This document shows, piece after piece, positions 4,040-43,347 of a stretch of DNA of 64,000 nucleotides (position 1 is its first letter; each line of letters opens with the position of its first letter). A program made the position numbers and the translations under genes. The notes under the pieces are model-generated. The model did no database searches and was not told where the DNA came from. It saw only the letters and a program-made list of their open reading frames with translations. The stretch is from the NCBI GenBank assembly GCA_031459385.1, contig JAVKIP010000014.1:1-64000 (forward strand). Direction: 5' to 3'. This stretch comes from Candidatus Fervidifonticultor secundus. GTDB taxonomy: Bacteria; Sysuimicrobiota; Sysuimicrobiia; Sysuimicrobiales; Humicultoraceae.

Positions 4040-4190
4040 AGCATGCGGAAGTCAGACGCCGGGCAACAATCGGGCGGCGGCCCGATCTTCTCCCGGAGCG
4101 CCCCGATACGGCGACATGAGGAATCGGGTTGCGGACTGAAGAAGATCGAACGGAGGGCCGATGCGACCGGGTGGGGACCGTGGCTAGAAT
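4040..4190. promoter_or_regulatory. Divergent promoters with palindromic boxes
   Basis: Boxes 4069-4086 ATCGGGCGGCGGCCCGAT, 4123-4140 and 4145-4162 ATCGAACGGAGGGCCGAT; -10 CATGCT (minus, 4040-4045) and TAGAAT (plus, 4185-4190). Confidence 0.75.
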
Positions 4191-19229: not shown

Positions 19230-20229
19230 GGATCCGTACCGCGCGCTCGCGCCGCCGGCGCTCCTGGGCGGCGGTGATCGCCGCCGCGGCGGCGATCAGG
19301 AGCCCGATGACCGCATCGTGCCAGTAAGAGGAGATCCGCAGCAGAATGAGCCCGTTGCGAATCACGGCGATGAGCAGCACGCCCAGGATCGTGCCGGCCA
19401 CGGTCCCTGAGCCCCCGAAGACGCTGGCACCGCCCAGCACCGCGGCGGCTAAGACGTCCAGCTCGCGCCCCACGATGGCGTTGGGCTGGATGATCTGTGC
19501 CAGCTGGGCCTGGACGAAACCGCCCAGCCCCGCCAGCAGGCCCATGTACGCGTAGACGAAGAGCCGCAGGCGGAAGATCGGAAACCCGGCCCGGCGCGCG
19601 GCTTCCGCGTTGCCCCCCAGGGCGTAGATGCGGCGGCCCACGACCAGGAAGTTCAGGACGAGCCAGGTGAGGAGTGCGGCCGCGGCCCAGAAGATGATGG
19701 GCGTCGAGAGGCCGTACACGGCGCCGTCGGGATTCATGAACCGGACGAGCTTGTACTGCGCGAACTCCTGAAAGGCCATGGGCAGGTCGGTGATCCAGGT
19801 GCCGCCGGTGAAGAAGATCAGCAGGCCGTAGAAGGTGCTCAGGGTGGCGATGGTGATGATCACGGGATGCACGCGCGCGTAGTGGATCAGCACGCCGTTG
19901 GCGGCCCCCAGCGCCAGCCCGATGGGGAGCGGGATGAGCAGCGCCACCAGCACGGGCTCCGTCGCCCGCGTGGTGATCAACAGCCCCATGAGGTACTGCG
20001 CCACCGTCGCCGTGGCTGTGAACGACACGTCGATCCCGCCGGAGATGAGGACGACCAGCTGGCCCAGCGCCACGATCCCCAGGAACGCGTTGTTCCGCAG
20101 CACGTCGAAGGCGTTCTCGGCCGTGAGGAACTCGGGCCGGCCGGCGGTGACGATCGCCGAGAGCACGACCAGGACGGCCAGCAGGTAAGTCTCGGGACGC
20201 CGCCCCAGCCGCCGGAGCGCGTCGCGCAT
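19219..20229 (-). CDS. Sugar (CUT2) ABC transporter permease
   Basis: SGGIDVSF, GGNAEAARRAG, ELDVLAAAVLGG. Confidence 0.92.
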   Translation of the reverse strand: MRDALRRLGRRPETYLLAVLVVLSAIVTAGRPEFLTAENAFDVLRNNAFLGIVALGQLVVLISGGIDVSFTATATVAQYLMGLLITTRATEPVLVALLIPLPIGLALGAANGVLIHYARVHPVIITIATLSTFYGLLIFFTGGTWITDLPMAFQEFAQYKLVRFMNPDGAVYGLSTPIIFWAAAALLTWLVLNFLVVGRRIYALGGNAEAARRAGFPIFRLRLFVYAYMGLLAGLGGFVQAQLAQIIQPNAIVGRELDVLAAAVLGGASVFGGSGTVAGTILGVLLIAVIRNGLILLRISSYWHDAVIGLLIAAAAAITAAQERRRRERAVRIHVA

Positions 20230-20234
20230 CGCCG

Positions 20235-21725
20235 TCAGGCGGTCAGCTGCCGGTGGAGGTCGGCCTCGCTGGCGGCCTCTCTGCCGACCTCGGCGACGAT
20301 CCGGCCGTGCTTCATGACCAGGATGCGATCACAGACCGCGAGGGCTTCGGCGACTTCCTCCGTGATGAGCAAGATGCCCACGCCGTCTTCGGCCAGCCGG
20401 TCGATGATGTCGTAGACCACGGCCCTGGCGCCGACATCGATCCCTACCGTCGGGCCGTCGAGGACCAGGATGCGGGGCCGTGTGGACAGCCACTTGGCGA
20501 TCACCACCTTCTGCTGGTTGCCGCCGGACAGGGCGCTGACCGGCTGCTCGATGGACGTCGTCCGGATGTCGAAGGCGCGCACGGCGGTGTCGCAGAAGGC
20601 GGCGGTCCGGCGCGGTGCGAGCAGCCGGCCGGGTCCGGTGAGGGCATCCAGGGCGGTGACGATGAGGTTGCTGCGTACCGGCTGCCGGGCCACGACGCCC
20701 TGTGCCAGACGGTCCTCGGGCACGTACGCGATACCCGCCCGGATCGCGTCGGCGTTGGTGCGCAGACGCACCGACCGTCCCTCGACGGCGATCTCTCCCG
20801 CGTCCGGCGGATTCATGCCGAACAGCGCCAGCGCCAGCTCCGTCTTGCCGGACCCCAAAGGCCCGATCAGGCCCAGCACCTCGCCGCGGTGCAGGGTGAA
20901 GGTGACGTCCCTGAAGTGCCCGCGTCGGCCGAGCCCGCGCACGTCGAGCACGGCGGCGCCGATCGGGTGCCGCCCGGGACGCCGGCGAGCGGCGATCGTG
21001 CGTCCGGTCATGTACTGGACCAGGCGATCCCGGTCCACCTCGGACCGCGCGAAGGTGCCCACCCTGCGGCCGTCACGCAGGACGGTGATCCGTTGCGCGA
21101 TCTCCAGCACCTCGTGCAGTTTGTGGCTGACGAACAGCGTGGCGATGCCGTGGGCCTGCAGATCCCGGAGGATGCCGACCAGACGGTCGACCTCTCGCTG
21201 CGTGAGGGACGCCGTGGGTTCGTCGGTGATCACCAGCCGGGCGTCGCTGGCCAGGGCCCGGCAGATCGCCACCAGCTGCTGGTCCGCGATCGGCAGCGTG
21301 CCCACCGGCGTCTCCAGCGGCAACGTGACCCCGACCCGCTCCAGGGCCGCCTGCGCGACGGCCGTGATCGCCCGCCAGTCGACGAGCCGGCGCCCGCCGG
21401 CGGCGACCCGGAGCATGGCGATGTTCTCGGCGACGGACAGGTTGGGGAACAGCGCGAGGTCCTGGTGCACGACCTGGATCCCGCGGCGCAGCGCGTCGGC
21501 CGGGGTGAGCCCGCGCACGCGCTCCCCGCCGATCTCCAGTTCGGCGCCCGGATCGGGAGACACCACACCCGTAATGATCTTGATCAGCGTGCTCTTGCCC
21601 GACCCGTTTTCCCCCACCAGGCAGTGGATCTCCCCGGTGCGGATCTCCAGGTCCACGTCTTGAAGCGCCACGACCCCGCCGTAGCGCTTGCTGATGTGGC
21701 GCGCGTGGAGGAAGACGTCCGTCAT
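20235..21725 (-). CDS. Sugar ABC transporter ATP-binding protein (two NBDs)
   Basis: GENGSGKST, DEPT, SHKL, LSGGNQQK, DGPTVGIDVG. Confidence 0.95.
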   Translation of the reverse strand: MTDVFLHARHISKRYGGVVALQDVDLEIRTGEIHCLVGENGSGKSTLIKIITGVVSPDPGAELEIGGERVRGLTPADALRRGIQVVHQDLALFPNLSVAENIAMLRVAAGGRRLVDWRAITAVAQAALERVGVTLPLETPVGTLPIADQQLVAICRALASDARLVITDEPTASLTQREVDRLVGILRDLQAHGIATLFVSHKLHEVLEIAQRITVLRDGRRVGTFARSEVDRDRLVQYMTGRTIAARRRPGRHPIGAAVLDVRGLGRRGHFRDVTFTLHRGEVLGLIGPLGSGKTELALALFGMNPPDAGEIAVEGRSVRLRTNADAIRAGIAYVPEDRLAQGVVARQPVRSNLIVTALDALTGPGRLLAPRRTAAFCDTAVRAFDIRTTSIEQPVSALSGGNQQKVVIAKWLSTRPRILVLDGPTVGIDVGARAVVYDIIDRLAEDGVGILLITEEVAEALAVCDRILVMKHGRIVAEVGREAASEADLHRQLTA

Positions 21726-28097: not shown

Positions 28098-28222
28098 ATG
28101 GTGCGGCGGCGGCGCGGGAGGGAGAATCGGGGTTTCCCGGAGAGTTCGAAGGGAGTTTTCCCGACAGGGGGTCGAATCGGGCAGAGACCTGATGGCCGGC
28201 TGTCGCGCGGGCGTTCTAGACT
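28098..28222. promoter_or_regulatory. Divergent psr/gltA promoters with boxes
   Basis: ATCGGGG half-site at 28126 is 22 nt from CACCAT (minus); ATCGGGCAGAGACCTGAT 28176-28193 is 23 nt from TAGACT 28217-28222. Confidence 0.7.
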
Positions 28223-28284
28223 GACCTCGGACGTCGGCCTGAGCAGCCAGCAGCAAACCGTGGGCCGAGGGGGTGCGCGCAGTC

Positions 28285-29610
28285 ATGGGCAAGGACACGT
28301 TGACCATCATCGACAACCGCACCGGGAGGACGTACGAGCTTCCCATCCTCTACGGGACCTATCCCCGGTACGGTGCGGCCATCCGGGCCATCGACCTGCG
28401 CCAGATCAAGGTGGACGACCAGGACTTCGGGCTCATGAGCTACGATCCGGCGTTTCTCAACACGGCGTCGACCCGCAGCACCATCACGTTCATCGACGGC
28501 GAGCGAGGCATCCTGCGGTATCGCGGGTACCCGATCGAGGTGCTGGCGGAACGGGCGTCGTACCTGGAGGTCGCCTACCTCCTGCTGCACGGCGAGCTGC
28601 CTACCCGGGCGGAGCTGGACGCCTGGGTGCACGAGATTACCCACCACACGTTCATCCACGAGTCCATCAAGAAGTTCCTGGACGGGTTCCACTACGACGC
28701 GCACCCGATGGGCATGCTCATTGGCACCGTCGCCGCGCTGTCCACCTTCTACCCCGAGGCCAAGCAGATCCACGACCCGACGGTGCGGCGGCGGCAGATC
28801 GTACGCCTGCTGGCCAAGATGCCGACCATCGCGGCGTTTGCGTACCGGCACAGCCGTGGGCTGCCCTACGCGTATCCCGACAACGACCTCTCGTACACCG
28901 GCAACTTCCTCAACATGCTCTTCAAGACCACCGAGGTGAAGTACGCGCCGCACCCGGTGCTGGAGCGGGCGCTGGATCGCCTCTTCATCCTGCACGCCGA
29001 CCATGAGCAGAACTGCAGCACGAACGCCATGCGCGGCATCGGGAGCAGCCACGCCGACCCCTACTCGGCCCTGGCCGGCGCCGCCGCCGCCCTCTACGGG
29101 CCCCTGCACGGGGGCGCCAACGAGCAGGTGCTGCGCATGCTGCGGGAGATCGGCAGCAAGGACCGGGTGGGCAGCTACATCAAGCGGGTCAAGGCCGGCG
29201 AGGTCCTGCTCATGGGCTTCGGCCACCGCGTCTACAAGCACTACGACCCGCGGGCCCGGATTATCAAGCGGGTCGCAGACGAGGTGTTCACGGTGACCGG
29301 GGTCAACCCGCTGCTGGAGATTGCCCTGGAGCTGGAGCGCATCGCGCTGGAGGATGACTACTTCGTCACGCGCCGGCTCTACCCCAACGTCGACTTCTAC
29401 TCAGGGATCATCTACCAGGCCATGGGGTTCCCGGTAGAGATGTTCCCGGTCCTGTTCGCCATTCCGCGCACCGCGGGCTGGCTGGCCCAGTGGGAGGAGC
29501 TGCTGGGGGATCCTGAGCAGAAGATCAGCCGGCCGCGCCAGCTCTACGTCGGGGCCGACCTACGCGACTACGTGTCCCTCGAGGCGCGGGGGGCGGGGCG
29601 GGCGGCTTAG
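28285..29610 (+). CDS. gltA: Citrate synthase
   Basis: GILRYRGYPI, HADHEQNCST, GPLHGGANE, GFGHRVYK, YPNVDFYSG. Confidence 0.97.
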   Translation: MGKDTLTIIDNRTGRTYELPILYGTYPRYGAAIRAIDLRQIKVDDQDFGLMSYDPAFLNTASTRSTITFIDGERGILRYRGYPIEVLAERASYLEVAYLLLHGELPTRAELDAWVHEITHHTFIHESIKKFLDGFHYDAHPMGMLIGTVAALSTFYPEAKQIHDPTVRRRQIVRLLAKMPTIAAFAYRHSRGLPYAYPDNDLSYTGNFLNMLFKTTEVKYAPHPVLERALDRLFILHADHEQNCSTNAMRGIGSSHADPYSALAGAAAALYGPLHGGANEQVLRMLREIGSKDRVGSYIKRVKAGEVLLMGFGHRVYKHYDPRARIIKRVADEVFTVTGVNPLLEIALELERIALEDDYFVTRRLYPNVDFYSGIIYQAMGFPVEMFPVLFAIPRTAGWLAQWEELLGDPEQKISRPRQLYVGADLRDYVSLEARGAGRAA

Positions 29611-32463: not shown

Positions 32464-33126
32464 TCAGACGTCGGCGCCCAGCAGTCCCCGCCGCAGCGCG
32501 TAGCGCACCAGCTCGGCGCGCGTGCGCAGCTCCAGCTTCTCGAGGATGCGCGCGCGGTAGGTCTCGACGCTCTTGGGGCTCAGGTAGAGCCGTTTGGCGA
32601 TCTCGCGCGCCGTGTAGCCTGCGGCGACCAGCTTCAGGACCTCGCGTTCCCGCTCGGAGAGCCGGTCGTAGCCGTCCTGTTCCTCCCCGACCTGCACACG
32701 CGCCACGAAGTCCTCCAGCAGGGCGCGCGTGGCAGTGGGGTGGAGGTAGGCGCCCCCTGCCGCCACGGTGCGGATGGCGGCGATGAGCTCAACGTCGGCC
32801 GCGGTCTTGTTGACGTATCCCGCGGCACCGGCCTTCAGCACGGGGAACAGGTAGCGCTCCTGGGCGTGCACGGTGAGGATCAGGACGTGGGTGTTGACGC
32901 CGAGGTCGCGGATCTGTCGCGTCGCCTCCAGGCCGTCCATCTCCGGCATGCCGATGTCCATCACCACCACGTCCGGGCGCACCTGGGCGGCCATCGCCAC
33001 GGCCTCGCGGCCCGTGGAGGCTTCGCCGACTACCGCCATGTCGGGTTCGTGCTCGAGCAGTGCCCGCAGTCCGGCGCGCAGCACCGGGTGGTCGTCGGCC
33101 AGCAGCACCCGAATCCGGTCAGTCAC
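32464..33126 (-). CDS. NarL/NreC-family response regulator
   Basis: LADDH, VMDIGMP, GYVNK, LSEREREVL..SPKSVETYRARILEKL LuxR HTH. Confidence 0.95.
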   Translation of the reverse strand: MTDRIRVLLADDHPVLRAGLRALLEHEPDMAVVGEASTGREAVAMAAQVRPDVVVMDIGMPEMDGLEATRQIRDLGVNTHVLILTVHAQERYLFPVLKAGAAGYVNKTAADVELIAAIRTVAAGGAYLHPTATRALLEDFVARVQVGEEQDGYDRLSEREREVLKLVAAGYTAREIAKRLYLSPKSVETYRARILEKLELRTRAELVRYALRRGLLGADV

Positions 33127-34216
33127 GGCCGGTGCCTCCTGCGCCACCGTCGTGCACCGGGGCCCAGGCCGTGATGGTGGTGCCGGTGCCCGGCGCCGAG
33201 CGCACCTCGAGGCGTCCCCCGACCAGCGCGATGCGCTCGGCCATCCCGGCCAGCCCCAGCCCGCCGGCGTTCCCGTTGCCCGCGGCTGGCGTCGCGGGCA
33301 GCCCCCGCGTGGGCCCGGCGCGGGCTGGATCGAAGCCGATGCCGTCGTCGGAGACTTCCAGGGACACGCCGTCCGGCCCGCGGCGCAGACATACGTCGGC
33401 CCGCGTCGCCTGGCCGTGGCGGCGTGCGTTGGTCAGGGCCTCCTGGGCGATGCGGTAGAGCGCCAGCTCGATCTCTGCCGGCAGCCGCCGGTCGAGGCCC
33501 GTCGCCGCCACCGTGACGCGCATGCCGCCGGCAGCGTTGATCTCGTCCGCGTGAGCCGCCAGCGCCGCGGCCAGCCCCAGGTCGTCTAGCACCGACGGGC
33601 GCAGCTCCACCGCGATGCGGCGCACGTCGTCCAGCGCGCGGGCGGTCAGCGCGCGCAGCTCGCGCACCCGCGCCCGGACCTGCGCTGGCTCACTCGCCTG
33701 GTCCAGCAGCCGCAGCCGCACCAGGAGCGAGGTGAGCGCCTGCGCCGCCTCGTCGTGCAGCTCGCGTGCGATGCGCCGTCGCTCCTCTTCCTGCGCGCGG
33801 AGGATCTGCCCCGGCAGGCGGCGGAGCTGCTCGGTGTGCTCGTCCAATGCGGCCACCATGTGGTCGAAGGTATCGGCCAGGTGTTCCAGGCGCTCGTCCC
33901 ACAGGCCGTCGCGCGCGACGCGCACCCCGGTGGCGCCGGCGCGCACCGCGTCCACCGCGCGCTGCAGGTGCTCGAGCGGGCGCAACACCGCCCGCAGCAC
34001 CAGGAAGTTGGCCAGGACGCTGGCCGCCACGCCGGCCAAGAGGAAGCCAGCGATCAGCTCGTAGTGCGGCGACGACGGGTGGGTGGCGCCGTGCCGCACC
34101 GCAACCAGGGTGCCGCCGACGGCGCCGATCACGATGATGGCGGCATTGGCGCCCAGGATCCTGTGCAGAATGGGCACGCGCCGCCACAGCCCGGGCCACC
34201 AGCCCGTCCGCCTCAC
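33119..34216 (-). CDS. HisKA_3 sensor kinase (2 TM + HAMP)
   Basis: EERRRIARELHDE, QEALTNARRH, DDGIGF, GLGLAGMAER; start approximate. Confidence 0.93.
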   Translation of the reverse strand: MRRTGWWPGLWRRVPILHRILGANAAIIVIGAVGGTLVAVRHGATHPSSPHYELIAGFLLAGVAASVLANFLVLRAVLRPLEHLQRAVDAVRAGATGVRVARDGLWDERLEHLADTFDHMVAALDEHTEQLRRLPGQILRAQEEERRRIARELHDEAAQALTSLLVRLRLLDQASEPAQVRARVRELRALTARALDDVRRIAVELRPSVLDDLGLAAALAAHADEINAAGGMRVTVAATGLDRRLPAEIELALYRIAQEALTNARRHGQATRADVCLRRGPDGVSLEVSDDGIGFDPARAGPTRGLPATPAAGNGNAGGLGLAGMAERIALVGGRLEVRSAPGTGTTITAWAPVHDGGAGGTGRD

Positions 34217-34249
34217 GCGCGCGTCCCCCTGCAGGCCCACTGCCCGCGT

Positions 34250-35554
34250 CTACCCCGTGGCGGCCAGGCCGCCCGGTGCGATGCGCCGGTGCGCCTGCGC
34301 CACGAGCTGTTGCCGATAGGCCTGCAGGTCGATGGGATACCGGGCGACGCCGTCGGCGATGGCCGCCTCGGCCACGGCCGGCGCCACCCAGACCAGGACC
34401 CGCGGGTCCAGGGGCTTGGGGAGGAAGTAGTCGGGGCCGAACGTCAGGCTCGCGAGCCCGTAGGCCTCGAGCACCGACAGCGGCACGTCCTCCTTCGCCA
34501 GCGCGGCCAGCGCCCGGGCCGCGGCGATCTTCATGCGCTCGGTGATGGCTCGCGCCCGCACGTCCAGGGCGCCGCGGAAGACGAAGGGAAACGCCAGCAC
34601 GTTGTTCACCTGGTTGGGATCGTCGGACCGCCCTGTGGCCATGAGGACGTCGGGGCGCGCGGCCCGGGCCTCGGCGTACGAGATCTCCGGGTCCGGGTTG
34701 GCCATGGCGAAGATGATGGGGCGGGCCGCCATGCGCTGCACCATCTCGGGCGAGACGATTCCGCCCACCGACAGGCCGACGAAGACGTCGGCGCCGTCCA
34801 GGGCCTCGGCCAGGGTGCGCGCGCGCGTCTCCACCGCGAATCGTTGCTTGTACGGGTTCATGTTGGTGGCGCGCCCGGCGTAGACCACGCCGGTGGTGTC
34901 CACCAGCATGGTGTGCTCGCGCGGCATGCCCAGCTCGACGAAGAACGCCGCCGTGGCGATGGCGGAGGCGCCGGCGCCGCTGATGACCGCGCGGACGCCG
35001 TGGAGGGGCTTGTCGGCCAGCTCCAGGGCGTTGAGCAGCGCGGCGCCGGTGACGATGGCGGTGCCGTGCTGGTCATCGTGGAACACGGGGATGTCCAGCA
35101 GGGCGCGCAGCCGTTCCTCGATGATGAAGCAGTCGGGGGCCTTGATGTCCTCCAGGTTGATGCCGCCGAACGTGGGGGTCAGCGCCCGCACGGTGCGGAC
35201 CACGTCGTCGGGATCGGCGGCGTCGAGCTCCAGATCGAACACGTCGATGTCGGCGAAGGTCTTGAACAGCAGGGCCTTGCCTTCCATGACGGGCTTGGCT
35301 GCCAGGGGGCCGACGTTCCCTAGCCCGAGCACGGCCGTGCCGTTGCTGACCACGGCCACCAGGTTGCCCCGGGCCGTGTACCGGTACGCGGCGGCGGGGT
35401 CCAGATGGATCTCGCGGACCGCCTCGGCCACCCCGGGTGTGTACGCCAGGCTCAGGTCTCGCTGCCCGGCACAGGGCTTGGTGATGGAGATGGCCAACTT
35501 CCCCGGTCGTCCCCGGGCGTGATACTCCAGGGCTTCCTCACGGGTGATCTGCAC
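34250..35554 (-). CDS. Malic enzyme (MaeB N-terminal type, no PTA domain)
   Basis: [46 protein letters not shown]. Confidence 0.93.
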
Positions 35555-35757: not shown

Positions 35758-36270
35758 ATGATGAAGCTGCAGCGCATTCTCGTGGGCACGGATATGTCAG
35801 AGGTCTCGCCGGCGCTGTATACGCTGGCGCAGACGCTGGCCCGCCAGTCCGGTGCGCATCTCGTCGTGGCGTATATCGCCGACCCCGAGGAGTACGACGA
35901 GATCCGCCGGGAACGGCCCATGGGCATCGACGAATTCGTTGATCGCTTCCGCACCAGCATCCTGGCGGACTTCGAGGACGCCACCGGCGGCCGCAAGCAG
36001 CCCGTCCAGGTCGAGGTGCGCATGCGGCAGCGGGGCGTGGCCGAGGATCTGCTGCAGGTCGCAGCCGACGTGCAGGCCGATCTGATCGTCGTCGGCACGC
36101 ACGGCCGCACCGGCCTGCGGCGCGTCCTGCTGGGCAGCGTTGCCGAAGCGGTGGTGCGCCACGCCACCATGCCGGTGCTGGTGGTGCCGCAGGCGGCGGC
36201 GGTGCAGGCCGCGGTGCCCGCGGCGACGACCGCCGTGCCGGCGGGGACGGCGGGGAACCAGGGAGGCTAG
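35758..36270 (+). CDS. Universal stress protein
   Basis: RILVGTD, ADLIVVGTHGRTG..LLGSVAE. Confidence 0.93.
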   Translation: MMKLQRILVGTDMSEVSPALYTLAQTLARQSGAHLVVAYIADPEEYDEIRRERPMGIDEFVDRFRTSILADFEDATGGRKQPVQVEVRMRQRGVAEDLLQVAADVQADLIVVGTHGRTGLRRVLLGSVAEAVVRHATMPVLVVPQAAAVQAAVPAATTAVPAGTAGNQGG

Positions 36271-37916
36271 TCAAGCCCCCGGACGGTTCCGTCCCCGTCC
36301 AGGTCGATCTCCCATGCTCGCGGCCGTGCCGGGAGGGCGGGCATGGTCATGACGTCGCCCACCAGCACCAGGACGAACCCGGCGCCGCCTCGCACAGCGA
36401 CCTCCCGTACCGGTAGCGTGAAGCCTTCGGGCACGCCGCGGATGTGGGGCCGGTCGGTGAGGGAGTACTGTGTCTTGGCAATGCACACCGGCAGGCGGCC
36501 GAATCCTCGGCGCTCGGCGTCCTCCAGCTGTCGCGCGGCTGTCTCCGCGAAGGCCACGCCTGCGGCACCGTAGATCTGCCGGGCCACGGCCTCGACCTTC
36601 GCGCGCAGCGGGGTGTCGGGACCGTAGAGCCGGCCGCCCTCCGGCAGCGGGCCGCGCGCCGCCGCCTCCTGCACCAGGCGCGCCAGGTCTTCGGCCCCGG
36701 CCCCGCCGGTGTGGTACGCGTCACAGACGGCCGCCGGGACACCCTGCGCCCTGGCGGCGGCCAGGATGGCGTCGATCTCCCCGGCGGTGTCGGAGGCAAA
36801 CCGGTTGACGCACACGACCGGGCGCATCCCGAGCCGCTGCACGATCTGCACGTGGTGGCGCAGCTGCGGCAGGCCGGCCGTCACCGCCTCGAGGTCGGGA
36901 ACGCTCAGGCGATCCGCCGCGGCGCCGCCGTGGTGTCGCAGCGCCCGGACGGTGACCACTACCACCGCAGCTGCGGGCTGCGGGCCGCCACAGGCGCCGA
37001 CGACGTTTGCGAACTTCTCCGCCCCCAGATCGGCGCCGAAGCCCGCCTCGACCACGGCGAACTCCGCGAGGGCACGCGCCAGGCGCAGCGAGAGGAGCGA
37101 GCTCGTGCCGTGGGCGATGTTCCCGAAGGGGCCGGCGTGGACCAGGGCGGGCCCGCCCTCCTGCGTTTGCACCAGGTTGGGCTGCAGCGCATCGCGCAGC
37201 AGGACGGCCATGGCGCCGGCGGCGCGCAGATCGTCGGCGGTGACTGGCGTTCCGTCCCGGGTCGTCCCCACGATGATGCGGCCCAGCCGCCGGCGCAGGT
37301 CGGCGTAGTCAGCGGCCAGCGCCAGCACGGCCATTACCTCGGAGGCGGCCGTAATGTCGAAGTGCTCCTCCCGCACTACGCCGCCCAGCCCGACCACGGC
37401 GTGGCGCAGGGCCCGGTCGTTCACGTCGAGCACGCGGCGGTGCGTCACCTGCCGGGGGTCCAGCAGCGGGTCGCGCCTGCGGTGGAGGTGATCGTCGAGC
37501 ATGGCGGCCAGCAGGTTGTTGGCCGCGGTGACGGCGTGGAAGTCGCCGGTGAAGTGCAGGTTGATCGCGACGGCCGGCTCCACCGTGCATCGGCCGCCCC
37601 CGGTGGCGCCGCCCTTCATGCCGAAGACCGGACCCAGGGAGGGCTGCCGGAGACACAGCACGGTGCGCGCGCCCAGACGCCGCAGGCCCTGGGCCAGCCC
37701 GATGGCCGTCACGGTCTTGCCCTCGCCCGGCGGGGTCGGGGTGATCGCCGTGACCAGCACGACGTGGCCCCCGGGGCGGCTTGTGCGCCGCGCCAGGGCC
37801 TCCAGACGCACCTTGGCCGCGTGGAGGCCGTACGGGACGATCTCCGCCGGCTCGAGGCCAGCCTCGGCCGCGACTTCTGCGATCGGGCGCAGGACCCGCG
37901 GTAGTGTGGTGGACAC
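36267..37916 (-). CDS. fhs: Formate--tetrahydrofolate ligase
   Basis: TPTPPGEGKT, PSLGPVFGMKGGATGGG, INLHFTGDFHA, EAGFGADLGAEKF, AKTQYS. Confidence 0.97.
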   Translation of the reverse strand: MSTTLPRVLRPIAEVAAEAGLEPAEIVPYGLHAAKVRLEALARRTSRPGGHVVLVTAITPTPPGEGKTVTAIGLAQGLRRLGARTVLCLRQPSLGPVFGMKGGATGGGRCTVEPAVAINLHFTGDFHAVTAANNLLAAMLDDHLHRRRDPLLDPRQVTHRRVLDVNDRALRHAVVGLGGVVREEHFDITAASEVMAVLALAADYADLRRRLGRIIVGTTRDGTPVTADDLRAAGAMAVLLRDALQPNLVQTQEGGPALVHAGPFGNIAHGTSSLLSLRLARALAEFAVVEAGFGADLGAEKFANVVGACGGPQPAAAVVVVTVRALRHHGGAAADRLSVPDLEAVTAGLPQLRHHVQIVQRLGMRPVVCVNRFASDTAGEIDAILAAARAQGVPAAVCDAYHTGGAGAEDLARLVQEAAARGPLPEGGRLYGPDTPLRAKVEAVARQIYGAAGVAFAETAARQLEDAERRGFGRLPVCIAKTQYSLTDRPHIRGVPEGFTLPVREVAVRGGAGFVLVLVGDVMTMPALPARPRAWEIDLDGDGTVRGLD

Positions 37917-38048
37917 CAGAGGCCCTCCTTCCGGTCGGCGCGCGTACCGGCGCCCTGTCGTGCGTGCGACGACTGCCCTCCGCCGCGCTCCGACGTCGGC
38001 TGGCCGGGCCCGCGCCGACTGGTGCGCCGTCAGGACCGCGTCGCGTTC

Positions 38049-38122
38049 AGGGTACGGAGCGCCCGCCCGTGGCGCCATCGGGCGCGAGCCCGATTGGACA
38101 CCGTCGGGGCCCGTGGCATGCT
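38049..38122. promoter_or_regulatory. Single perfect box centred between two divergent -10 elements
   Basis: ATCGGGCGCGAGCCCGAT 38077-38094, 22 nt from TACCCT (minus, 38049-38054) and 22 nt from CATGCT (plus, 38117-38122). Confidence 0.8.
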
Positions 38123-38730: not shown

Positions 38731-39705
38731 ATGCATCTCGCGCTGCTCGGCGACGTGATGCTCGGGCGGCTCGTCAACGAGGCGCTGGCCAGGGTGCCGC
38801 CCGACTACCCGTGGGGCGATGTGCTGCCTGTGCTGCGGGCGGCCGATGCCGTCATCGTCAATCTCGAGTGCGTGCTGGCTGACCGGGGCCGGCCGCAGCC
38901 CGGGAAGACGTTCACCTTCCGCTCCGATGCCAGGAACGTCGCCGTGCTGGCTGCGGCCGGCGTGCGAGCGGTGTCGCTGGCGAACAACCACACGCTCGAC
39001 TACGGCGAGGCGGCGCTGCTGGAGTGCCTGACGGTACTGGACCGTGCGGGCATCGCCCATGCCGGTGCCGGCCGCACCCTGGAGGAAGCCCAGGCGCCGG
39101 CCACCATCCAGGTCGGCGGCGCGACGCTGGCACTGGTGGCCTGTACCGACAACGAGCCCGGCTGGGCGGCTGCGGCCGACCGGCCCGGCGTCTTCCACGT
39201 GCCCGTCGACGATCCCGACGGCCCCGCGTTTCGCGGGCTCCTGGCGCTGGTGGCGCAGGCGCGCGCCGCGGCCGACCTCGTCGTGGTGTCTGTGCACTGG
39301 GGGCCCAACTGGGGCGTGGCCCCGCCACCCGCGCACACAGAGGCCGGCAGGCGATTGATCGAGGCCGGCGCCGGCGTCGTCTACGGGCACTCGGCTCACA
39401 TCGTGCGCGGTGCCGCGTGGTGGGGCGGCGGCCTCATCCTGTACAGCTGCGGCGACTTCATCGACGACTACGCCGTGGACCCGGTGGAGCGCAACGACTG
39501 GTCGTTCGTCTTCCTCCTGGACGCGGCCGGCGGCCGCGTACGCCGCGCGCGGCTCGTGCCGACCGTGATCCGTGACTTCCAGGCGCGTATGGCTCGCCCG
39601 CCGGAGCGAGAGGCGATCCTGGCGCGGATGCACCGGCTGTGCGCCGACCTGGGCACCGAGACGCGCCGCAGCCGGGAGGGTCTCGAGCTCCCCGCGCCAG
39701 CATGA
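38731..39705 (+). CDS. CapA/PgsA-family metallophosphatase
   Basis: GDVMLGR, NLE, LANNH, SVHWG, GHSAH, YSCGDF. Confidence 0.92.
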   Translation: MHLALLGDVMLGRLVNEALARVPPDYPWGDVLPVLRAADAVIVNLECVLADRGRPQPGKTFTFRSDARNVAVLAAAGVRAVSLANNHTLDYGEAALLECLTVLDRAGIAHAGAGRTLEEAQAPATIQVGGATLALVACTDNEPGWAAAADRPGVFHVPVDDPDGPAFRGLLALVAQARAAADLVVVSVHWGPNWGVAPPPAHTEAGRRLIEAGAGVVYGHSAHIVRGAAWWGGGLILYSCGDFIDDYAVDPVERNDWSFVFLLDAAGGRVRRARLVPTVIRDFQARMARPPEREAILARMHRLCADLGTETRRSREGLELPAPA

Positions 39706-39722
39706 CGGCGAATACATTCCCC

Positions 39723-39756
39723 GCCCGATGGCGTGCTCCGGCGGATGCGCTATAGT
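39723..39756 (+). promoter_or_regulatory. Half-box plus -10 driving the structured RNA
   Basis: GCCCGAT 39723-39729, 21-nt gap, TATAGT 39751-39756. Confidence 0.7.
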
Positions 39757-39763
39757 ATCATCT

Positions 39764-39932
39764 AGAGGAGCGCAGATCCGGCGGCGAAGTAGCCGAGTCA
39801 AACGCTCCGTACGTGGACGCCGAGAGTCTGCGAAGTGTTCTTCGGGGGTAACTCCGGAGAACGGCTGGCGGACGGTAGGCGCCGGCGGCGGGGGCCGAAG
39901 ACGGTGAAAAGTCACCGGACGAGCGCTCCTCT
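39764..39932 (+). ncRNA. Unassigned multibranched structured RNA (sRNA or riboswitch-like leader)
   Basis: 10-bp closing helix AGAGGAGCGC/GCGCTCCTCT plus at least four internal helices, including an 11-bp stem with a GTAA tetraloop; starts 8 nt after TATAGT. Confidence 0.7.
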
Positions 39933-40015
39933 TCCGTCTCGTCCGCGTCTGTCAGCGTGTGCCCTCGGATGTCGAGCTCTCGTCGGGCGCCGGGTAGAGG
40001 GGGGAGGGCAGGGCC

Positions 40016-40684
40016 ATGGCCCAGGAGCAGATGGTCAGTATCCCGGCCGACGGTGAGGTCCTGGAGGGTGGGCTGGCCCTACCCGTGCGGAGGGCGGGTC
40101 TGGTGCTCTTCGCCCACGGCAGCGGCAGTAGCCGGCACAGCCCCCGCAATCGGCACGTCGCTCGCGCCCTGCAGCAGGCCGGGCTGGGGACGCTGCTCTT
40201 CGACCTGCTGACCGCTGCCGAGGAGGTCGAGGACGCCCGCACTGCGCGCCTGCGCTTCGACATTCCGTTGCTGGCGCAGCGGCTGATCGCGGCCACGGCG
40301 TGGGCGCAGACCGACCCGCGGACCCGCCACCTGCCCATCGGCTATTTCGGGGCCAGCACGGGCGCGGCGGCCGCGCTGGTCGCCGCTGCCGAACGGCCCG
40401 AGGGCGTCGGCGCCATCGTCTCCCGGGGCGGCCGGCCCGATCTGGCAGGGGCGGCGCTGGGCCGCGTCCGCGCGCCGACGTTGCTGGTGGTCGGCGGACG
40501 CGACCTGGTGGTGCTGGACCTGAACCGGCAGGCCCTGGCGGCGTTGCAGGCGCCAGCCGAGCTGGCCATCGTGCCGGGTGCCGGACACCTGTTCGAGGAA
40601 CCAGGCACCCTCGATGAGGTAGCGCGACTGGCGGCCGCGTGGTTCCGCCGTCACCTGGAAGGCCTACCCCGTCAGGTCGCGTAG
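40016..40684 (+). CDS. Dienelactone-hydrolase-like alpha/beta hydrolase
   Basis: FAHGSGSSRHSPRN, GYFGASTG, VSRGGRPDL, PGAGHLFEEPG. Confidence 0.9.
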   Translation: MAQEQMVSIPADGEVLEGGLALPVRRAGLVLFAHGSGSSRHSPRNRHVARALQQAGLGTLLFDLLTAAEEVEDARTARLRFDIPLLAQRLIAATAWAQTDPRTRHLPIGYFGASTGAAAALVAAAERPEGVGAIVSRGGRPDLAGAALGRVRAPTLLVVGGRDLVVLDLNRQALAALQAPAELAIVPGAGHLFEEPGTLDEVARLAAAWFRRHLEGLPRQVA

Positions 40685-41985
40685 GACCTCCAGCCGGTTG
40701 GGCCGCCGCAGCTGATGGGCGCGAGCGGCATCTCCTGCATCGGGATGCGCTCCGCCTCGTGGAAGGCCTTCATCCGCGCCGCCTGGTCGGCCGTCTTCGT
40801 CGTAGCCTCGATCAGCCGGTCATAGGCCGGATTGGACCACCGCCCTTCGTTGAAGGACGATCCGGTGAAGAACATGTCCAGGAAGGTCTTGGGGTCGCGG
40901 TAGTCGCCGATCCACCCCGCCCGTGCGATGTCGAAGTTGCTTTGCTGGCGGCTCTGCAGGTAGACCTTCCACTCCTGGTTGGTCAGGTTGACCTGGATGC
41001 CCAGCGTCTGGCGCCACATCTCCTGGATCGCCTCGGCGATGGTCTTGTGACGCTGGGAGGTGTTGTAGAGGATCGTCAGGGTGGGGAAGCCGCGGCCAGC
41101 CGGGAACCCGGCCTCGGCCAGCAGCTTCCTGGCCGTCGCCGGATCGTAGACCGGCGCCAGGGCCCCGCCCGCCTGGCGGAAGTCCGTCCCGGCCACGACG
41201 ATGCCCGGCGGCACGAACGCCGTCGCTGGCTTCTCACCCGCTCGGGTGATGCGCGCGGTGATCAGCGTGCGGTTGATGGCGTAGGCCAGCGCCTTGCGGA
41301 CCCGCACGTCGTCCAGCGGCTTCCGCGTCGTGTTGAAGAGGTAGTAGTAGGTACCGATGTAGGGCATGGCTTTGAAGTCGCCGGTCTTCTGCGGCCGCGG
41401 GATGTCCGCCACGGGCACGTTGGACGAGCCGTCGAGCTGCCCGGCCTCGTACTGGGCCAGCGCCGTGCTCTCGGCCTCGATCATCGCGAACTCGATGCGC
41501 TGCAGCTTGATCCTGGCCGCGTCCCAGTAGCGGGGGTTCTTCTCCACCACGATCCGGTTCTGGCGCGTCCACTCCTTGAGGACGAACGGCCCGTTGCCTA
41601 CGAAGGTGTCGGCCCGGCTGGCCCAGGTGGGCGTGGCGGCGACTACGGCCCGCGGGACCGGCATGAGCGTGTGGAAGGAGAGCAGGTCGCCGAAGAATGG
41701 CGTGGGGCTCTCCAGAGTGACGACCAGGGTTCGCGCATCGCGGGCCTTCACGCCGACCTGGGCGGGGTCGGCGATCTTGCCGGTGTTGTAGGCCTTGCCG
41801 TTCTTGATGTAGTAGAGCTGGTACGCGTACTCCGACGCCAGCTTGGGATCCAGTACGCGCTTCCAGGCGTACTCGAAGTCCGCGGCGGTGACCGGCTGTC
41901 CGTTCGACCACCGGGCCGCCCGCAGGAAGAAGGTCCACGTCAGGCCGTCCCGCGAGACCTCCCACCGCTCCGCCATGCCGGGCAC
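40672..41985 (-). pseudogene. Truncated OppA-like peptide-binding protein
   Basis: Family-5 motifs (PGMAERW, WSNGQPVTAADF, GNGPF, GWIGDY) but no signal peptide or N-terminus, abrupt C-terminus, no permease genes. Confidence 0.7.
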
Positions 41986-42099: not shown

Positions 42100-42465
42100 C
42101 TACGCCGCGAACCGGCGGAGGGTCCGCACCAGGTCGAAGGCCAGGCGCCCCTTCGGCAGCCAGGCGTCGGCGCGCAGGCGCAGCGCCGCCTCCCCGTAGT
42201 GGGGTTCGGCCTCGCTGGTGGTGACGACCACGCGGGGCCGGTGCTGGTCCCGCAGGCGCTCCAGCAGGCCCCGCTCTGCGCCCAGGCAGGTCTTCAGGTC
42301 GATGACCAGGACATCGGCGGGCTCCTCCGCTGACGCCGCGTACTCCCGGAGGGACCGGGCGTGCCCGACGACGCGGACGCCCGCGACGTCCCCCAGGAGC
42401 TCGGCGACCGCGGCGTGGATCTCCGGCAGGGGGTCGATGATAGCCACGCGCAGCGCATCCCTCAT
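42100..42465 (-). CDS. Stand-alone receiver domain protein (NarL-like REC)
   Basis: RVAIID, VRVVGHA, DVLVIDL, ADAWLPK; no output domain. Confidence 0.8.
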   Translation of the reverse strand: MRDALRVAIIDPLPEIHAAVAELLGDVAGVRVVGHARSLREYAASAEEPADVLVIDLKTCLGAERGLLERLRDQHRPRVVVTTSEAEPHYGEAALRLRADAWLPKGRLAFDLVRTLRRFAA

Positions 42466-42478
42466 GACCGTTGGCTTC

Positions 42479-42640
42479 ACCATACGCGCAGGGCGTGCCC
42501 ACGTGAATCGGGCTGTCGCCTGATGGGCGACCGCGGTGTGCCCCGCCTCGGCCTCGTGGCCGAGCGGGAAATCGGGCCGCCGCCTGATGCGGATTCGGCG
42601 GCGCGGCCGATGGCGACCGCGGGTGCTGCGGGACTACACT
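42479..42640. promoter_or_regulatory. Divergent promoters with three boxes
   Basis: 42507-42524 ATCGGGCTGTCGCCTGAT (22 nt from TATGGT, minus); 42571-42588 ATCGGGCCGCCGCCTGAT; 42594-42611 (23 nt from TACACT). Confidence 0.78.
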
Positions 42641-42672
42641 GCCCGCGTAGACCGAGCGAGGGGCGGTGCACC

Positions 42673-43347
42673 ATGCTGGTCCGCGACTCCATGATCCCTG
42701 ACCCCCGGACCATCGAACCCGAGGCGACGCTGGCAGACGCCATCGACCTCATGCGCGCGCTGCGCGTCCGCCACCTGCCCGTGATGAGCGGGCGCCGGCT
42801 GGCGGGGATCGTGACCTGGACCGACCTGATGCGGGCCGCGCCGCCCGTGGAGGCAAGCCTGGCCGGCCGGCGGCTGGCCGCGCTCTTCCAGCAGACCCAC
42901 GTGCGCGACGTGATGACGAAAGATCCGATCACGGTTGGTCCCGACGTGCCGGTGGAAGCCGCCGCGCGCCTGCTCCGGGATCGCAAGATCGGGTGTCTCC
43001 CCGTGGTCGAGCGGGGGATGCTGGTGGGCATCGTCACCGAGAGTGACCTCTTCGACGCGTTGATCCACATGCTGGGCGGAGACCTGGCGGGCCTGCGCGT
43101 CTCGGTCGAGCTCCCGGCGGGGCTCGCCGACCTGGCGGGCCTGGCGGCAGCGCTGCAGCAGCGGGTCGGTGCTGGCGAGCCGGTGGCGATCAACGCGCGC
43201 ATCGACGCCACCGGGCGCCGCGCGCATGTCCGCGTGGCGACCCAGGCGCCCCTCGTAGTCGCCGAGCATCTGGCCGCAGCCGGCTACGAGGTCTCTACGC
43301 TGCGCATCGATCGGCCGGTCAAGGCGGCGCGCGCCCACGTCGGCTGA
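42673..43347 (+). CDS. AcuB-like CBS-pair protein with degenerate C-terminal ACT-like domain
   Basis: VRHLPV..GIVTWTDL, IGCLPVV..GIVTESDLF. Confidence 0.85.
   Translation: MLVRDSMIPDPRTIEPEATLADAIDLMRALRVRHLPVMSGRRLAGIVTWTDLMRAAPPVEASLAGRRLAALFQQTHVRDVMTKDPITVGPDVPVEAAARLLRDRKIGCLPVVERGMLVGIVTESDLFDALIHMLGGDLAGLRVSVELPAGLADLAGLAAALQQRVGAGEPVAINARIDATGRRAHVRVATQAPLVVAEHLAAAGYEVSTLRIDRPVKAARAHVG

Follow-up and report, generated by a model that had tools for sequence, protein, structure and literature searches.

A predicted family of unbranched structured RNAs in the bacterial phylum Sysuimicrobiota

The window analyzed here, 64,000 nucleotides (nt) of contig JAVKIP010000014.1 from the assembly GCA_031459385.1 of Candidatus Fervidifonticultor secundus, carries a segment between a capA-like gene and an alpha/beta hydrolase gene, at positions 39764-39932 of the plus strand, that is predicted to encode one paralogue of a previously undescribed family of stand-alone structured small RNAs of ~170 nt. 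The two ends of the segment, AGAGGAGCGC (39764-39773) and GCGCTCCTCT (39923-39932), are fully complementary, and a TATAGT hexamer lies 7 nt ahead of this closing helix. A sequence-only reading of the window had proposed a discrete, multibranched RNA of this length starting at a regulon promoter. The fold, the conservation of the family and the aligned promoters point to just such a discrete RNA starting at a promoter; the perfect closing helix, the hexamer and a GTAA-capped hairpin (GTTCTTCGGGG-GTAA-CTCCGGAGAAC, 39837-39862) were all found where they had been placed, and both of these helices covary, but the branched architecture was not borne out. The locus is arranged as follows.

38731..39705 (+), upstream gene, PGA_cap (CapA-like; Pfam PF09587, E 2.2e-75)
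39710..39715 (+), GAATAC element upstream of the promoter, common to the 'type 2' copies in aligned upstream regions
39723..39731 (+), half-box GCCCGATGG, the right half of ATCGG-N8-CCGAT, at the -35 position
39751..39756 (+), -10 hexamer TATAGT
39764..39932 (+), predicted structured RNA
39933..39940 (+), 3' tail TCCGTCTC, weakly U-rich in this copy
40016..40684 (+), downstream gene, alpha/beta hydrolase (dienelactone-hydrolase-like; Pfam DLH/Hydrolase_4)

Folding of the 169-nt stretch (39764-39932) gave a minimum free energy (MFE) of -93.8 kcal/mol, compared with -69.1 ± 4.0 kcal/mol for 200 dinucleotide shuffles (z -6.2), none of which was as stable; the reverse strand of the same stretch gave a z of -3.3. 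The window as a whole contains 13.6% A and 72% G+C, and in the MFE fold A accounts for 25 of the 55 unpaired bases as against 10 of the 114 paired ones, in keeping with the A-rich loops that had been remarked on. The plus strand of the window can be assigned as the RNA because two invariant G-U pairs of the homologues (32-152 and 55-131) would otherwise be C-A mismatches.

Comparative analysis was based on an alignment (A3) of 67 distinct homologous sequences, the window copy included. RNAalifold returned a single unbranched hairpin from this alignment, with 0 branch points. Over the 51 pairs of this rod 94.4% of the alignment cells can pair, compared with 33-52% when the 3' partners were slid by 1-3 columns, and 24 of the 51 pairs change on both sides. 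Two-sided changes occur in 245 cells, against 89 ± 10 in shuffled alignments, and none of 500 shuffles attained any of the observed measures; relatedness among the sequences inflates this shuffle test, while the slid controls retain the relatedness and are still far lower. These data argue for an RNA that is one unbranched, irregular hairpin with paired ends and a GNRA (GUAA) tetraloop cap, in which seven covarying helices are split by nearly invariant, purine-rich internal loops. Most of the inner helices of the branched model (CGCAGAT/GTCTGCG, CGGCG/CGCCG, GCTGGCG/CGCCGGC and CGGTGA/TCACCG) are not conserved. Together with the GGC/GCC hairpin of that model they make up 24 pairs, and pairing in this set amounts to 61.4% across the 67 homologues compared with 61.1% in shuffles, 74 of 500 of which reach the observed value. 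The GGC/GCC hairpin itself is still pairable, but three GAC variants break it and keep an A-U pair with the 3' GUC (23-159). Similarly, CTCCGT (39805-10) and GCGGGG (39888-93) are complementary, as had been seen, but they form an ordinary nested helix, P4, and not a pseudoknot.

The covariation extends from the closing helix to the apex. In P1, pair 5-180 is A-U in 44 sequences and G-C in 22, pair 7-178 is A-U in 35 and G-C in 31, and the same A-U/G-C swap is found at 8-177. P2 includes pair 21-161, which occurs as C-G (50), U-A (10) and G-C (3), and pair 23-159, which occurs as G-C (42), G-U (22) and A-U (3). Two-sided change is seen in all seven pairs of P4 (44-142 to 51-134), with 45-141 found as C-G (44), U-A (17) and U-G (6). 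Single pairs represent P5 (60-126, U-A 32 and G-C 30) and P6 (68-118, C-G 60, U-A 6 and G-C 1), and the apical stem varies at 85-100 (C-G 39, G-C 25) and 89-95 (G-C 58, A-U 9). The parts of the window copy are listed below, from the closing helix inward.

39764-73 / 39923-32 (+), P1, AGAGGAGCGC / GCGCTCCTCT; from sequence, MFE fold and covariation
39777-81 / 39915-19 (+), P1b, UCCGG/CCGGA, a window-specific register; MFE fold
39783-85 / 39911-13 (+), P2 (5' strand GGC); MFE fold and covariation
39786-91 / 39906-10 (+), loop 2, GAAGUA/GAAAA, almost invariant in the 67 sequences
39792-99 / 39900-05 (+), P3, GCCG/CGGU plus UC/GA with a 2-nt bulge in the 5' strand; fold and paralogue covariation
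39800-03 / 39896-99 (+), loop 3, AAAC/CGAA, conserved and unpaired in the consensus fold
39804-10 / 39888-95 (+), P4 (5' strand GCUCCGU); covariation at all seven pairs
39811-18 / 39881-87 (+), hinge, ACGUGGAC/GCCGGCG, invariant in the 67 sequences
39819-21 / 39878-80 (+), P5, GCC/GGC; covariation
39822-25 / 39874-77 (+), loop 4, GAGA/GGUA, loop-E-like and near-invariant
39826-31 / 39868-73 (+), P6, GUCUGC/GCGGAC; MFE fold and covariation
39837-47 / 39852-62 (+), apical stem; covariation
39848-51 (+), GUAA tetraloop, the apical loop
39868..39922 (+), the 3' strands of P6, loop E, P5, hinge, P4, loop 3, P3, loop 2, P2 and P1b, in that order

Across the 67 sequences 58 positions are invariant, many of them formally unpaired. 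By its consensus words loop 2 fits what we take to be the AGUA/GAA S-turn (bulged-G, sarcin-ricin) motif, and loop 4 fits what is presumably one half of bacterial 5S rRNA loop E. The non-canonical pair beside loop 2 (26-157) varies between GA, AA and AC, the variation expected of non-canonical purine pairing. In most relatives P1 is lengthened by tandem G-A/A-G pairs, which some replace with Watson-Crick pairs. P3 and the hinge do not vary in the main set, and the hinge is uninformative there because it is invariant. Both covary in a set of diverged paralogues, where P3 pair 32-198 is G-C (9), A-U (4) or G-U (2), P3 pair 34-196 is C-G (19) or U-A (2), hinge pair 56-171 is G-C (9), C-G (3) or U-A (1), and hinge pair 57-170 is C-G (7), G-C (2), U-G (2) or U-A (1). 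The 20 diverged paralogues (44-87 bits) retain the rod, with 87.1% pairing and double changes in 37 of 51 pairs, in an alignment that was fitted to the model, leans toward it and keeps two weak rows (12.2 and 9.6 bits). The apical loops of these paralogues, where printed, are GUAA, GCAA or GAGA, with one 9-nt loop.

A BLAST search with a 221-nt query revealed a second copy in the same genome, ~80% identical (G000:C17:17358-17536, minus strand; locus L002/L135), and 33 of the 41 genomes searched (that of the window and 40 relatives) gave matches, often 2-5 in each. A 20-base degenerate pattern taken from the most conserved stretch was then used to scan one genome per species for 185,579 species. 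This gave 73 matches at 71 loci, with 67 full family members, seven of these cut at contig ends; roughly ten chance matches were expected by our estimate. Six matches (L034, L037, L044, L049, L054 and L074) were discarded as showing no further similarity, and a match on a viral contig, which the covariance model described below does not recognize, was put down to chance. All 67 members come from metagenome-assembled genomes (MAGs) titled Armatimonadota, CSP1-3, ANGP1, Bacillota/Firmicutes bacterium or simply 'bacterium', or bearing the Candidatus names Fervidifonticultor, Geohabitans, Calidihabitans and Thermofontivivens. The first three of these genera are placed in the Sysuimicrobiota (= CSP1-3), a phylum of one class and one order (PMC11604079) that includes the family Thermofontiviventaceae (PMC11604079). 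The Bacillota/Firmicutes titles are probably loose labels, since the sequence type and the neighbors of those copies match one family of the phylum, f4.

A covariance model (R1; 180 positions, 51 pairs, 0 branch points) matched 74 of the 94 genomes of the phylum, with 1-8 copies in each, and 43 of the 54 genomes that are ≥90% complete and ≤5% contaminated; all 94 genomes fall in one order, in agreement with the published taxonomy. The window copy is matched over the full model length (39762-39940, 163.5 bits, E 1.2e-36), in part by construction because its sequence is among the 67 seeds, and the second copy scores 185 bits; independent support comes from the matches outside the seed set. By family, R1-positive genomes number 31 of 33, plus the window's genome, in f1, 17 of 22 in f2, 23 of 23 in f4 and 1 of 1 in each of f6 and f7, as compared with 0 of 12 in f5 and 0 of 1 in f3. 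In five f5 genomes that are 95-100% complete nothing was found at E≤1 except for a 45-nt match of 16.8 bits. In f4 a single genome can carry as many as 8 matches, including tandem pairs and diverged copies. The RNA family thus appears, from these sequence surveys, to be specific to the phylum Sysuimicrobiota (CSP1-3), with expansion in one family (f4) and loss in another (f5). Two genomes marked unpublished (G010 and G019) are the source of L021 and L025 in alignments A1-A3, and each contributes a single hit to the BLAST and R1 counts and to the counts given below for DUF1844 and for a second small RNA; without them the counts are 31 of 39 (BLAST) and 72 of 92 (R1), and no claim depends on them. 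As a separate observation on f4, the tandem copies at L086:2473-2960 and L089:2473-2988 (L090 lies on the same contig) are ~310-340 nt apart and each has its own promoter module.

For 68 distinct loci whose flanks are complete, the upstream regions were aligned and motifs were counted within positional windows that we set. A -35-like TTG[ACT][CGA] is present in 63 of the 68, mostly as ATTGAC, and TAnnnT lies at the expected distance in 50, preceded by TGn in 34; a GAAC-N4-[GAT]TT dyad is found 4-5 nt upstream of the -35 in 59. At the other end, 55 of 68 loci have a T-rich tail (≥5 T in some 8 nt starting ≤12 nt from the closing helix) and 28 contain TTTT. Each RNA gene is therefore predicted to have its own promoter, ending ~7 nt ahead of the closing helix, with a U-tail in most. 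The promoters fall into two regulatory classes. The main copy, ancestral and best conserved, has a near-consensus TTGAC/TGnTAnnnT promoter following a GAAC-N4-GTT dyad, while the window copy belongs to a second, more divergent class ('type 2'). Among the 20 diverged paralogues, five have the GAAC dyad with an ATTGYG module (four by script, with L116 added by eye), 13 have CYGATR ~20 nt before TAnnnT with a GAATAC-like element ahead of it, like the window copy, and two belong to neither class. GAATAC or GAAATAC is conserved in the window copy, L003, L004, L099 and most of the 13 half-box paralogues. No promoter was called at the window RNA by a sigma-70 scan because its -35 is not TTGACA-like; from its -10 hexamer and the position of the closing helix, the transcript likely starts at or adjacent to 39764.

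The half-box at the window copy had been read as part of a regulon box, and this could be confirmed: GCCCGATGG is the right half of a regulon palindrome, ATCGG-N8-CCGAT, and its distance of 21 nt to the -10 hexamer equals that of the full boxes in their promoters. The genome has 22 copies of the palindrome, which cluster on two contigs, compared with 3, 9, 2 and 4 occurrences for spacers of N6, N7, N9 and N10, respectively, and 1 for the everted form. Six of the palindromes (18 bp) lie in the window, at 4069, 35618, 35675, 38077, 42040 and 47308, and boxes with one letter changed are found at 28189 and 42607 (sites near 28176 and 42594). The boxes, full or one letter changed, lie ~21 nt upstream of TAnnnT and overlap the -35 position. 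The genes of stress and central metabolism that they precede in the window, and the two-component genes that follow the malic enzyme in its operon, are given here.

28273-29610 (+), citrate synthase, box-preceded
32464-33147 (-), NarL/LuxR response regulator, after the malic enzyme
33119-34240, HisKA_3 kinase, after the malic enzyme
34250-35554 (-), malic enzyme, box-preceded
35773-36200 (+), universal stress protein, box-preceded
36267-38078 (-), formate-tetrahydrofolate ligase, box-preceded
42361-43347 (+), CBS-domain protein, box-preceded

Elsewhere in the genome boxes stand ahead of hemerythrin and GAF-HisKA_3 kinase genes, among others. The nearest solved relatives of the response regulator at 32464-33147 (-) are VraR, NarL and DevR, and we infer that this NarL/DevR-family regulator may bind the box. 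The loose right-half pattern alone is not enriched in the genome (23 occurrences compared with 22 for its reversed control), so that the argument depends on the palindrome and on the half-site being conserved in type 2 paralogues of three families. In an f4 genome, a diverged type 2 RNA (L131:1-1373, minus strand) sits immediately ahead of a malic enzyme gene of the same orientation, and in the window's genome the malic enzyme belongs to the box regulon.

The dyad of the main copies, GAAC-N4-GTT, resembles what we take to be the Gram-positive LexA (Cheo) box, although the RNA dyad is a weaker match. Strict CGAAC-N4-GTTCG sites precede an imuA/imuB-like pair, a DnaB-like helicase, a YebC-like gene and another helicase, and probable LexA-type boxes were located at G000:C35 ~9100, C7 ~15130, C2 ~73919, C59 ~39403, C20 ~28524, C18 ~5610 and C12:140014, the last being CGAACACGTGTTTG ahead of lexA itself. 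The lexA gene was identified with Pfam, and the other gene names were read from translated N termini. We hypothesize that LexA binds the GAAC dyad of the main copies, a tentative proposal that is more likely to be wrong than right. The window contains no GAAC-N4-GTT[CG], its half-box being a different motif. A role of the dyad as a general stable-RNA promoter was discarded, as it is absent from 6S, signal recognition particle (SRP) and 57 tRNA/tmRNA upstream regions.

The same promoter module as that of the main RNA (GAAC-N4-GTTT, ATTGAC and TGATAGGGT) also precedes a second candidate small RNA outside the window, at L133:845-1010 (-) or G000:C23 ~41745-41910 (-). This C23-type RNA comprises a ~90-nt hairpin in which GUCAGCGG and CCGCUGAC form the closing helix, with AUUUUGUG coming after it (folding z -2.8), has no Rfam hit at E<0.01 and gives BLAST matches in 29 of 41 genomes (its own and 40 relatives), including three of four f5 genomes that do not have the main RNA. 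In one genome a C23-type copy (G014:C32:20014-20147, plus strand) and a diverged main RNA (20206-20369, minus strand; L127) are convergent and ~60 nt apart.

The gene neighborhoods were examined by running Pfam on 116 of 155 flanking open reading frames (ORFs) from 61 loci, the other 39 having been judged by eye to be repeats of regions already represented. The nnr gene (YjeF_N plus Carb_kinase) flanks 26 of the 61 loci and acpS flanks 16. This is the setting of the main copy in families f1 and f2, where the RNA and acpS point toward each other (convergent) and the RNA and nnr point apart (divergent). The RNA lies ~30 nt from the acpS stop and overlaps neither coding region; in the nine nnr/acpS loci whose strands were read, L002 and L005 among them, it is on the strand opposite to both genes. 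In the window's genome the main copy is the second, better-conserved copy noted above (G000:C17), and its neighborhood is cdaA-glmM-glmS-acpS / nnr. The best-conserved copy has another setting in f4: in f4-type loci a DUF1844 gene precedes the RNA (8 loci; roughly 90-130 nt ahead of it in, for example, L006, L010, L042 and L089) and a DUF255 thioredoxin-domain gene follows (10 loci), all three being on the same strand in L006, where strands are printed. The window copy and the L003 and L004 copies of the same genus lie between the PGA_cap gene and the alpha/beta hydrolase gene, an order repeated at the diverged locus L126 of another genus, where the hydrolase is 69% identical to that of the window; other diverged copies have unrelated neighbors.

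Neither an Rfam match nor a conserved reading frame was found for the family. At gathering scores Rfam 15 matched nothing in the 64-kb window, nor in 12 loci, six of which are family members. At E≤10 the window and main copies returned mir-1224, a viral CITE, ssnA, sucC, mir-378 and a long non-coding RNA, all far below cut-off. The proposal of a new class is thus upheld by the lack of any matching Rfam family, and neither the raiA model nor the 6S model that had been suggested for comparison hit the stretch at E≤10. No ORF is conserved in the RNA family; the single recurrent start is a GUG within the invariant ACGUGGAC, from which the frames run to 12, 21, 30 or 42 codons, differing among clades. 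As for expression, a hot-spring metatranscriptome, available as contigs, yielded a single 1044-nt contig that carries a relative's copy. It ends 24 nt past the aligned part, 2-3 nt after the closing helix of that copy, which gives a weak hint of an RNA 3' end; contigs cannot show RNA ends, this one also runs upstream, and DNA was possibly present.

The RNA was also set beside other known systems. The large SRP RNA of the genome (G000:C9:4383-4648, 181.9 bits) is likewise an elongated hairpin, and SRP RNA has conserved internal loops and a GNRA tetraloop that serve as protein-binding sites; the loop sequences of SRP RNA (RF00169/RF01854) are unrelated to those of the new RNA, and R1 does not match the locus. 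RNase P RNA (263.9 bits) and tmRNA are present in the genome as well. With rRNA the likeness is one of motifs, the consensus words of the S-turn and of 5S loop E matching loops 2 and 4, and the new RNA is no rRNA fragment. In mycobacteria a DosR-controlled small RNA (sRNA) is an example of a stress sRNA embedded in a regulon. The window copy is comparable in that it shares its box with universal stress, CBS, malic enzyme and NarL/DevR two-component genes, but it has only a half-site and bears no relation to the DosR-type sRNA in sequence or structure. A Y RNA/YrlA was discarded as a candidate, Ro60/TROVE (PF05731) not being found in the 97.6% complete genome under conditions in which control genomes were matched; a riboswitch or leader was discarded for the family as a whole, there being no constant same-strand downstream gene (nnr is the neighbor in 26 of 61 loci and on the opposite strand in the nine read), and a type I toxin mRNA was discarded for want of a conserved short ORF. 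In the searchable papers on CSP1-3 no non-coding RNA of the phylum is described, and the main text of PMC11604079 makes no use of the term 'non-coding'. In sequence, fold, context and copy number the RNA has no relation to the families described so far, and we rate it a new class within the broad category of orphan structured bacterial RNAs.

The reading that we favor, at a probability of roughly 40-50%, is that the RNA is a trans-acting, protein-binding scaffold or decoy. This is suggested by the lack of a free variable segment, the lack of a constant downstream gene and the likeness of the loops to protein-binding rRNA modules. The conserved non-canonical loops (AGUA/GAA S-turn and GAGA/GGUA loop-E-like) would be the docking sites for protein, and the RNA would act in trans, neither by base pairing with mRNA nor as a cis-acting leader, with the type 2 copies switched on together with the box regulon. 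Several observations weigh against this. The S-turn and loop-E assignments are based on consensus words rather than on a structure. No partner protein was found, DUF1844 and Ro60/TROVE having failed as candidates: DUF1844 is present in 82 of 94 genomes and is not co-distributed with the RNA, as it is found in 8 of the 12 RNA-less f5 genomes (with lower scores, 24-30 bits). The RNA is dispensable for the whole of family f5 (0 of 12 genomes). No RNA run could be assigned to the locus, and the hot-spring metatranscriptome contigs gave nothing for the window's own sequence. Finally, the window copy has no clear U-tract, falling below the T-rich-tail threshold given above, lies 84 nt before the same-strand hydrolase gene, and shares the same-strand order PGA_cap, RNA, hydrolase with L003, L004 and L126, across two genera. 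A more specific form of this proposal would see the RNA as a mimic of rRNA modules (S-turn, loop E and GNRA) that captures a ribosomal or stress protein, an independently evolved, phylum-wide counterpart of global RNA regulators such as 6S, Ms1 or raiA. It would exist in two forms, a strongly expressed housekeeping copy under the promoter with the LexA-box-like dyad, and diverged copies wired into a NarL/DevR-type stress/dormancy regulon. We consider this version unlikely.

Two described RNAs come closest in general character. RaiA RNA is a stand-alone, highly conserved RNA of ~200 nt in Bacillota and Actinomycetota, with a conserved closing helix, an E-loop and A-rich linkers (PMC10861870; PMC12968392). 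The new RNA shares with it the stand-alone nature, the high conservation, a function not assigned, the occurrence in Gram-positive-type lineages, the paired ends, a putative S-turn/E-loop-type module and the A-rich linkers. The word likeness noticed in the sequence-only reading is also real, since GAAGUA, GAGAG, AGACG and a G-rich run followed by an A-rich one are all in the Rfam raiA consensus. These are short common motif words rather than homology. The raiA model (RF03072; cut-off 101.3 bits) found nothing at gathering score in the window or at E≤10 in 39650-40050, and nothing in the whole genome, in five further genomes (three with the new RNA) or in five f5 genomes. The model works in this setting, because six true raiA loci, from 6 of 61 genomes of a Clostridia-type class, score 119-199 bits. 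In the reverse direction, R1 at E≤1 found nothing in those six raiA loci, nor in the 6S candidate and SRP loci. The architecture differs as well: raiA RNA has three-/four-way junctions, the pseudoknots PK1 and PK2 and a compact core, built from the helices P1a/b/c with GU and GGU bulges, P3a-P3b, P4, P5 and P6 (PMC12968392), and it is single-copy, typically between raiA and comFC (PMC10861870), whereas the new RNA has no branch point, needs no pseudoknot, and is present in 1-8 copies (two in the window's genome) in other contexts. The raiA linker UUAGACGUAA between PK1 and P6 is absent from the consensus of the new family, with only the pentamer AGACG in common, inside GAAGACGGUGAAAAG. A divergent, rearranged or permuted raiA RNA, as had been suggested, is thus a very remote prospect. 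(Two Clostridia-labeled MAGs with chance pattern matches were also searched, and no raiA was found in them.) A 6S-like RNA sequestering RNA polymerase, possibly a second, stress-specific 6S, would account for a rod of ~170 nt with closed ends and its own promoter, as 6S (RF00013), considered here along with Ms1-type RNAs, is a rod of ~170-190 nt of this kind for which differently regulated paralogues are possible, and some of the paralogues here are tied to the stress regulon. However, the large central bubble of 6S is lacking, the largest internal loops being 6x5 and 4x4 nt, and the loops are sequence-invariant across the phylum, whereas loop conservation in 6S is far lower. RF00013 has no hit at E≤10 on the window stretch but matches another locus over its full length (G000:C12:198426-198617, minus strand; L103; 40.2 bits, cut-off 46.4, genome E 1.4e-6), which is probably the 6S RNA of this organism. 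We regard a 6S-like function as very unlikely.

Among readings that do without a described relative, the main alternative to the protein scaffold is a self-sufficient RNA machine, a ligand-binding RNA, ribozyme or RNA-only assembly that folds back by docking of its tetraloop or dimerizes via the invariant palindromic tetrads ACGU and CCGG. The 58 invariant positions, the GNRA class kept even in divergent paralogues and the hinge without covariation in the main set would fit it, and other large bacterial RNAs of unassigned function are known to form homo-oligomers (PMC12286853). No receptor motif or ligand clue was found, and the hinge covaries as ordinary pairs in the paralogues, which argues against its intermolecular use; on balance this is improbable. 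Still less probable is control of the hydrolase by the window copy, either as a cis-acting 5' leader or as a segment processed from a transcript that runs from capA through the RNA to the hydrolase gene. Co-transcription with the hydrolase is possible for this copy because of the missing U-tract, the 84-nt spacing and the recurrent gene order, and at L126 the hydrolase ORF as called starts 4 nt after the model match, its U-rich tail included. Against this, the best-conserved copies have no same-strand downstream gene, lying antisense between acpS and nnr, both classes have their own promoter at the closing helix, no alternative expression-platform pairing was seen, and the 20 divergent paralogues have unrelated neighbors. 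That same antisense position of the main copy, close to the acpS stop, could speak for a base-pairing sRNA or a cis-antisense RNA to acpS or nnr, and sRNA families with several sibling copies are common. Yet neither coding region is overlapped, the f4 RNA lies between unrelated genes, and there is no accessible variable seed because nearly every base is paired or in an invariant purine-rich loop; we hold this to be highly doubtful. That the RNA belongs to a mobile element, works as a guide or retron-like RNA or is the mRNA of a type I toxin is barely conceivable, in spite of the multiple copies, the tandem duplicates (L086 and L089) and the LexA-box-like dyad upstream. The 116 + 40 flanking ORFs include no transposase, reverse transcriptase, integrase or nuclease, the RNA keeps its chromosomal place from family to family, the viral-contig match is a chance one and there is no conserved ORF.

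The Sysuimicrobiota (CSP1-3) are abundant in soil and hot springs and have no pure culture (PMC11604079). Across four major families of this phylum the loops of the RNA are kept nearly letter for letter while its helices covary, a pattern of selection as for RNAs with a defined three-dimensional job. Being compact (170 nt), unbranched and GC-rich, the RNA would be a target for structural work, and the series of diverged paralogues may reveal which of its parts can vary. The two promoter classes would link it to testable regulators, and a palindromic regulon box and a probable LexA box for the phylum come as by-products. Even if its function should prove to be ordinary, the RNA would still be a well-supported addition to the catalogue of orphan bacterial RNAs.

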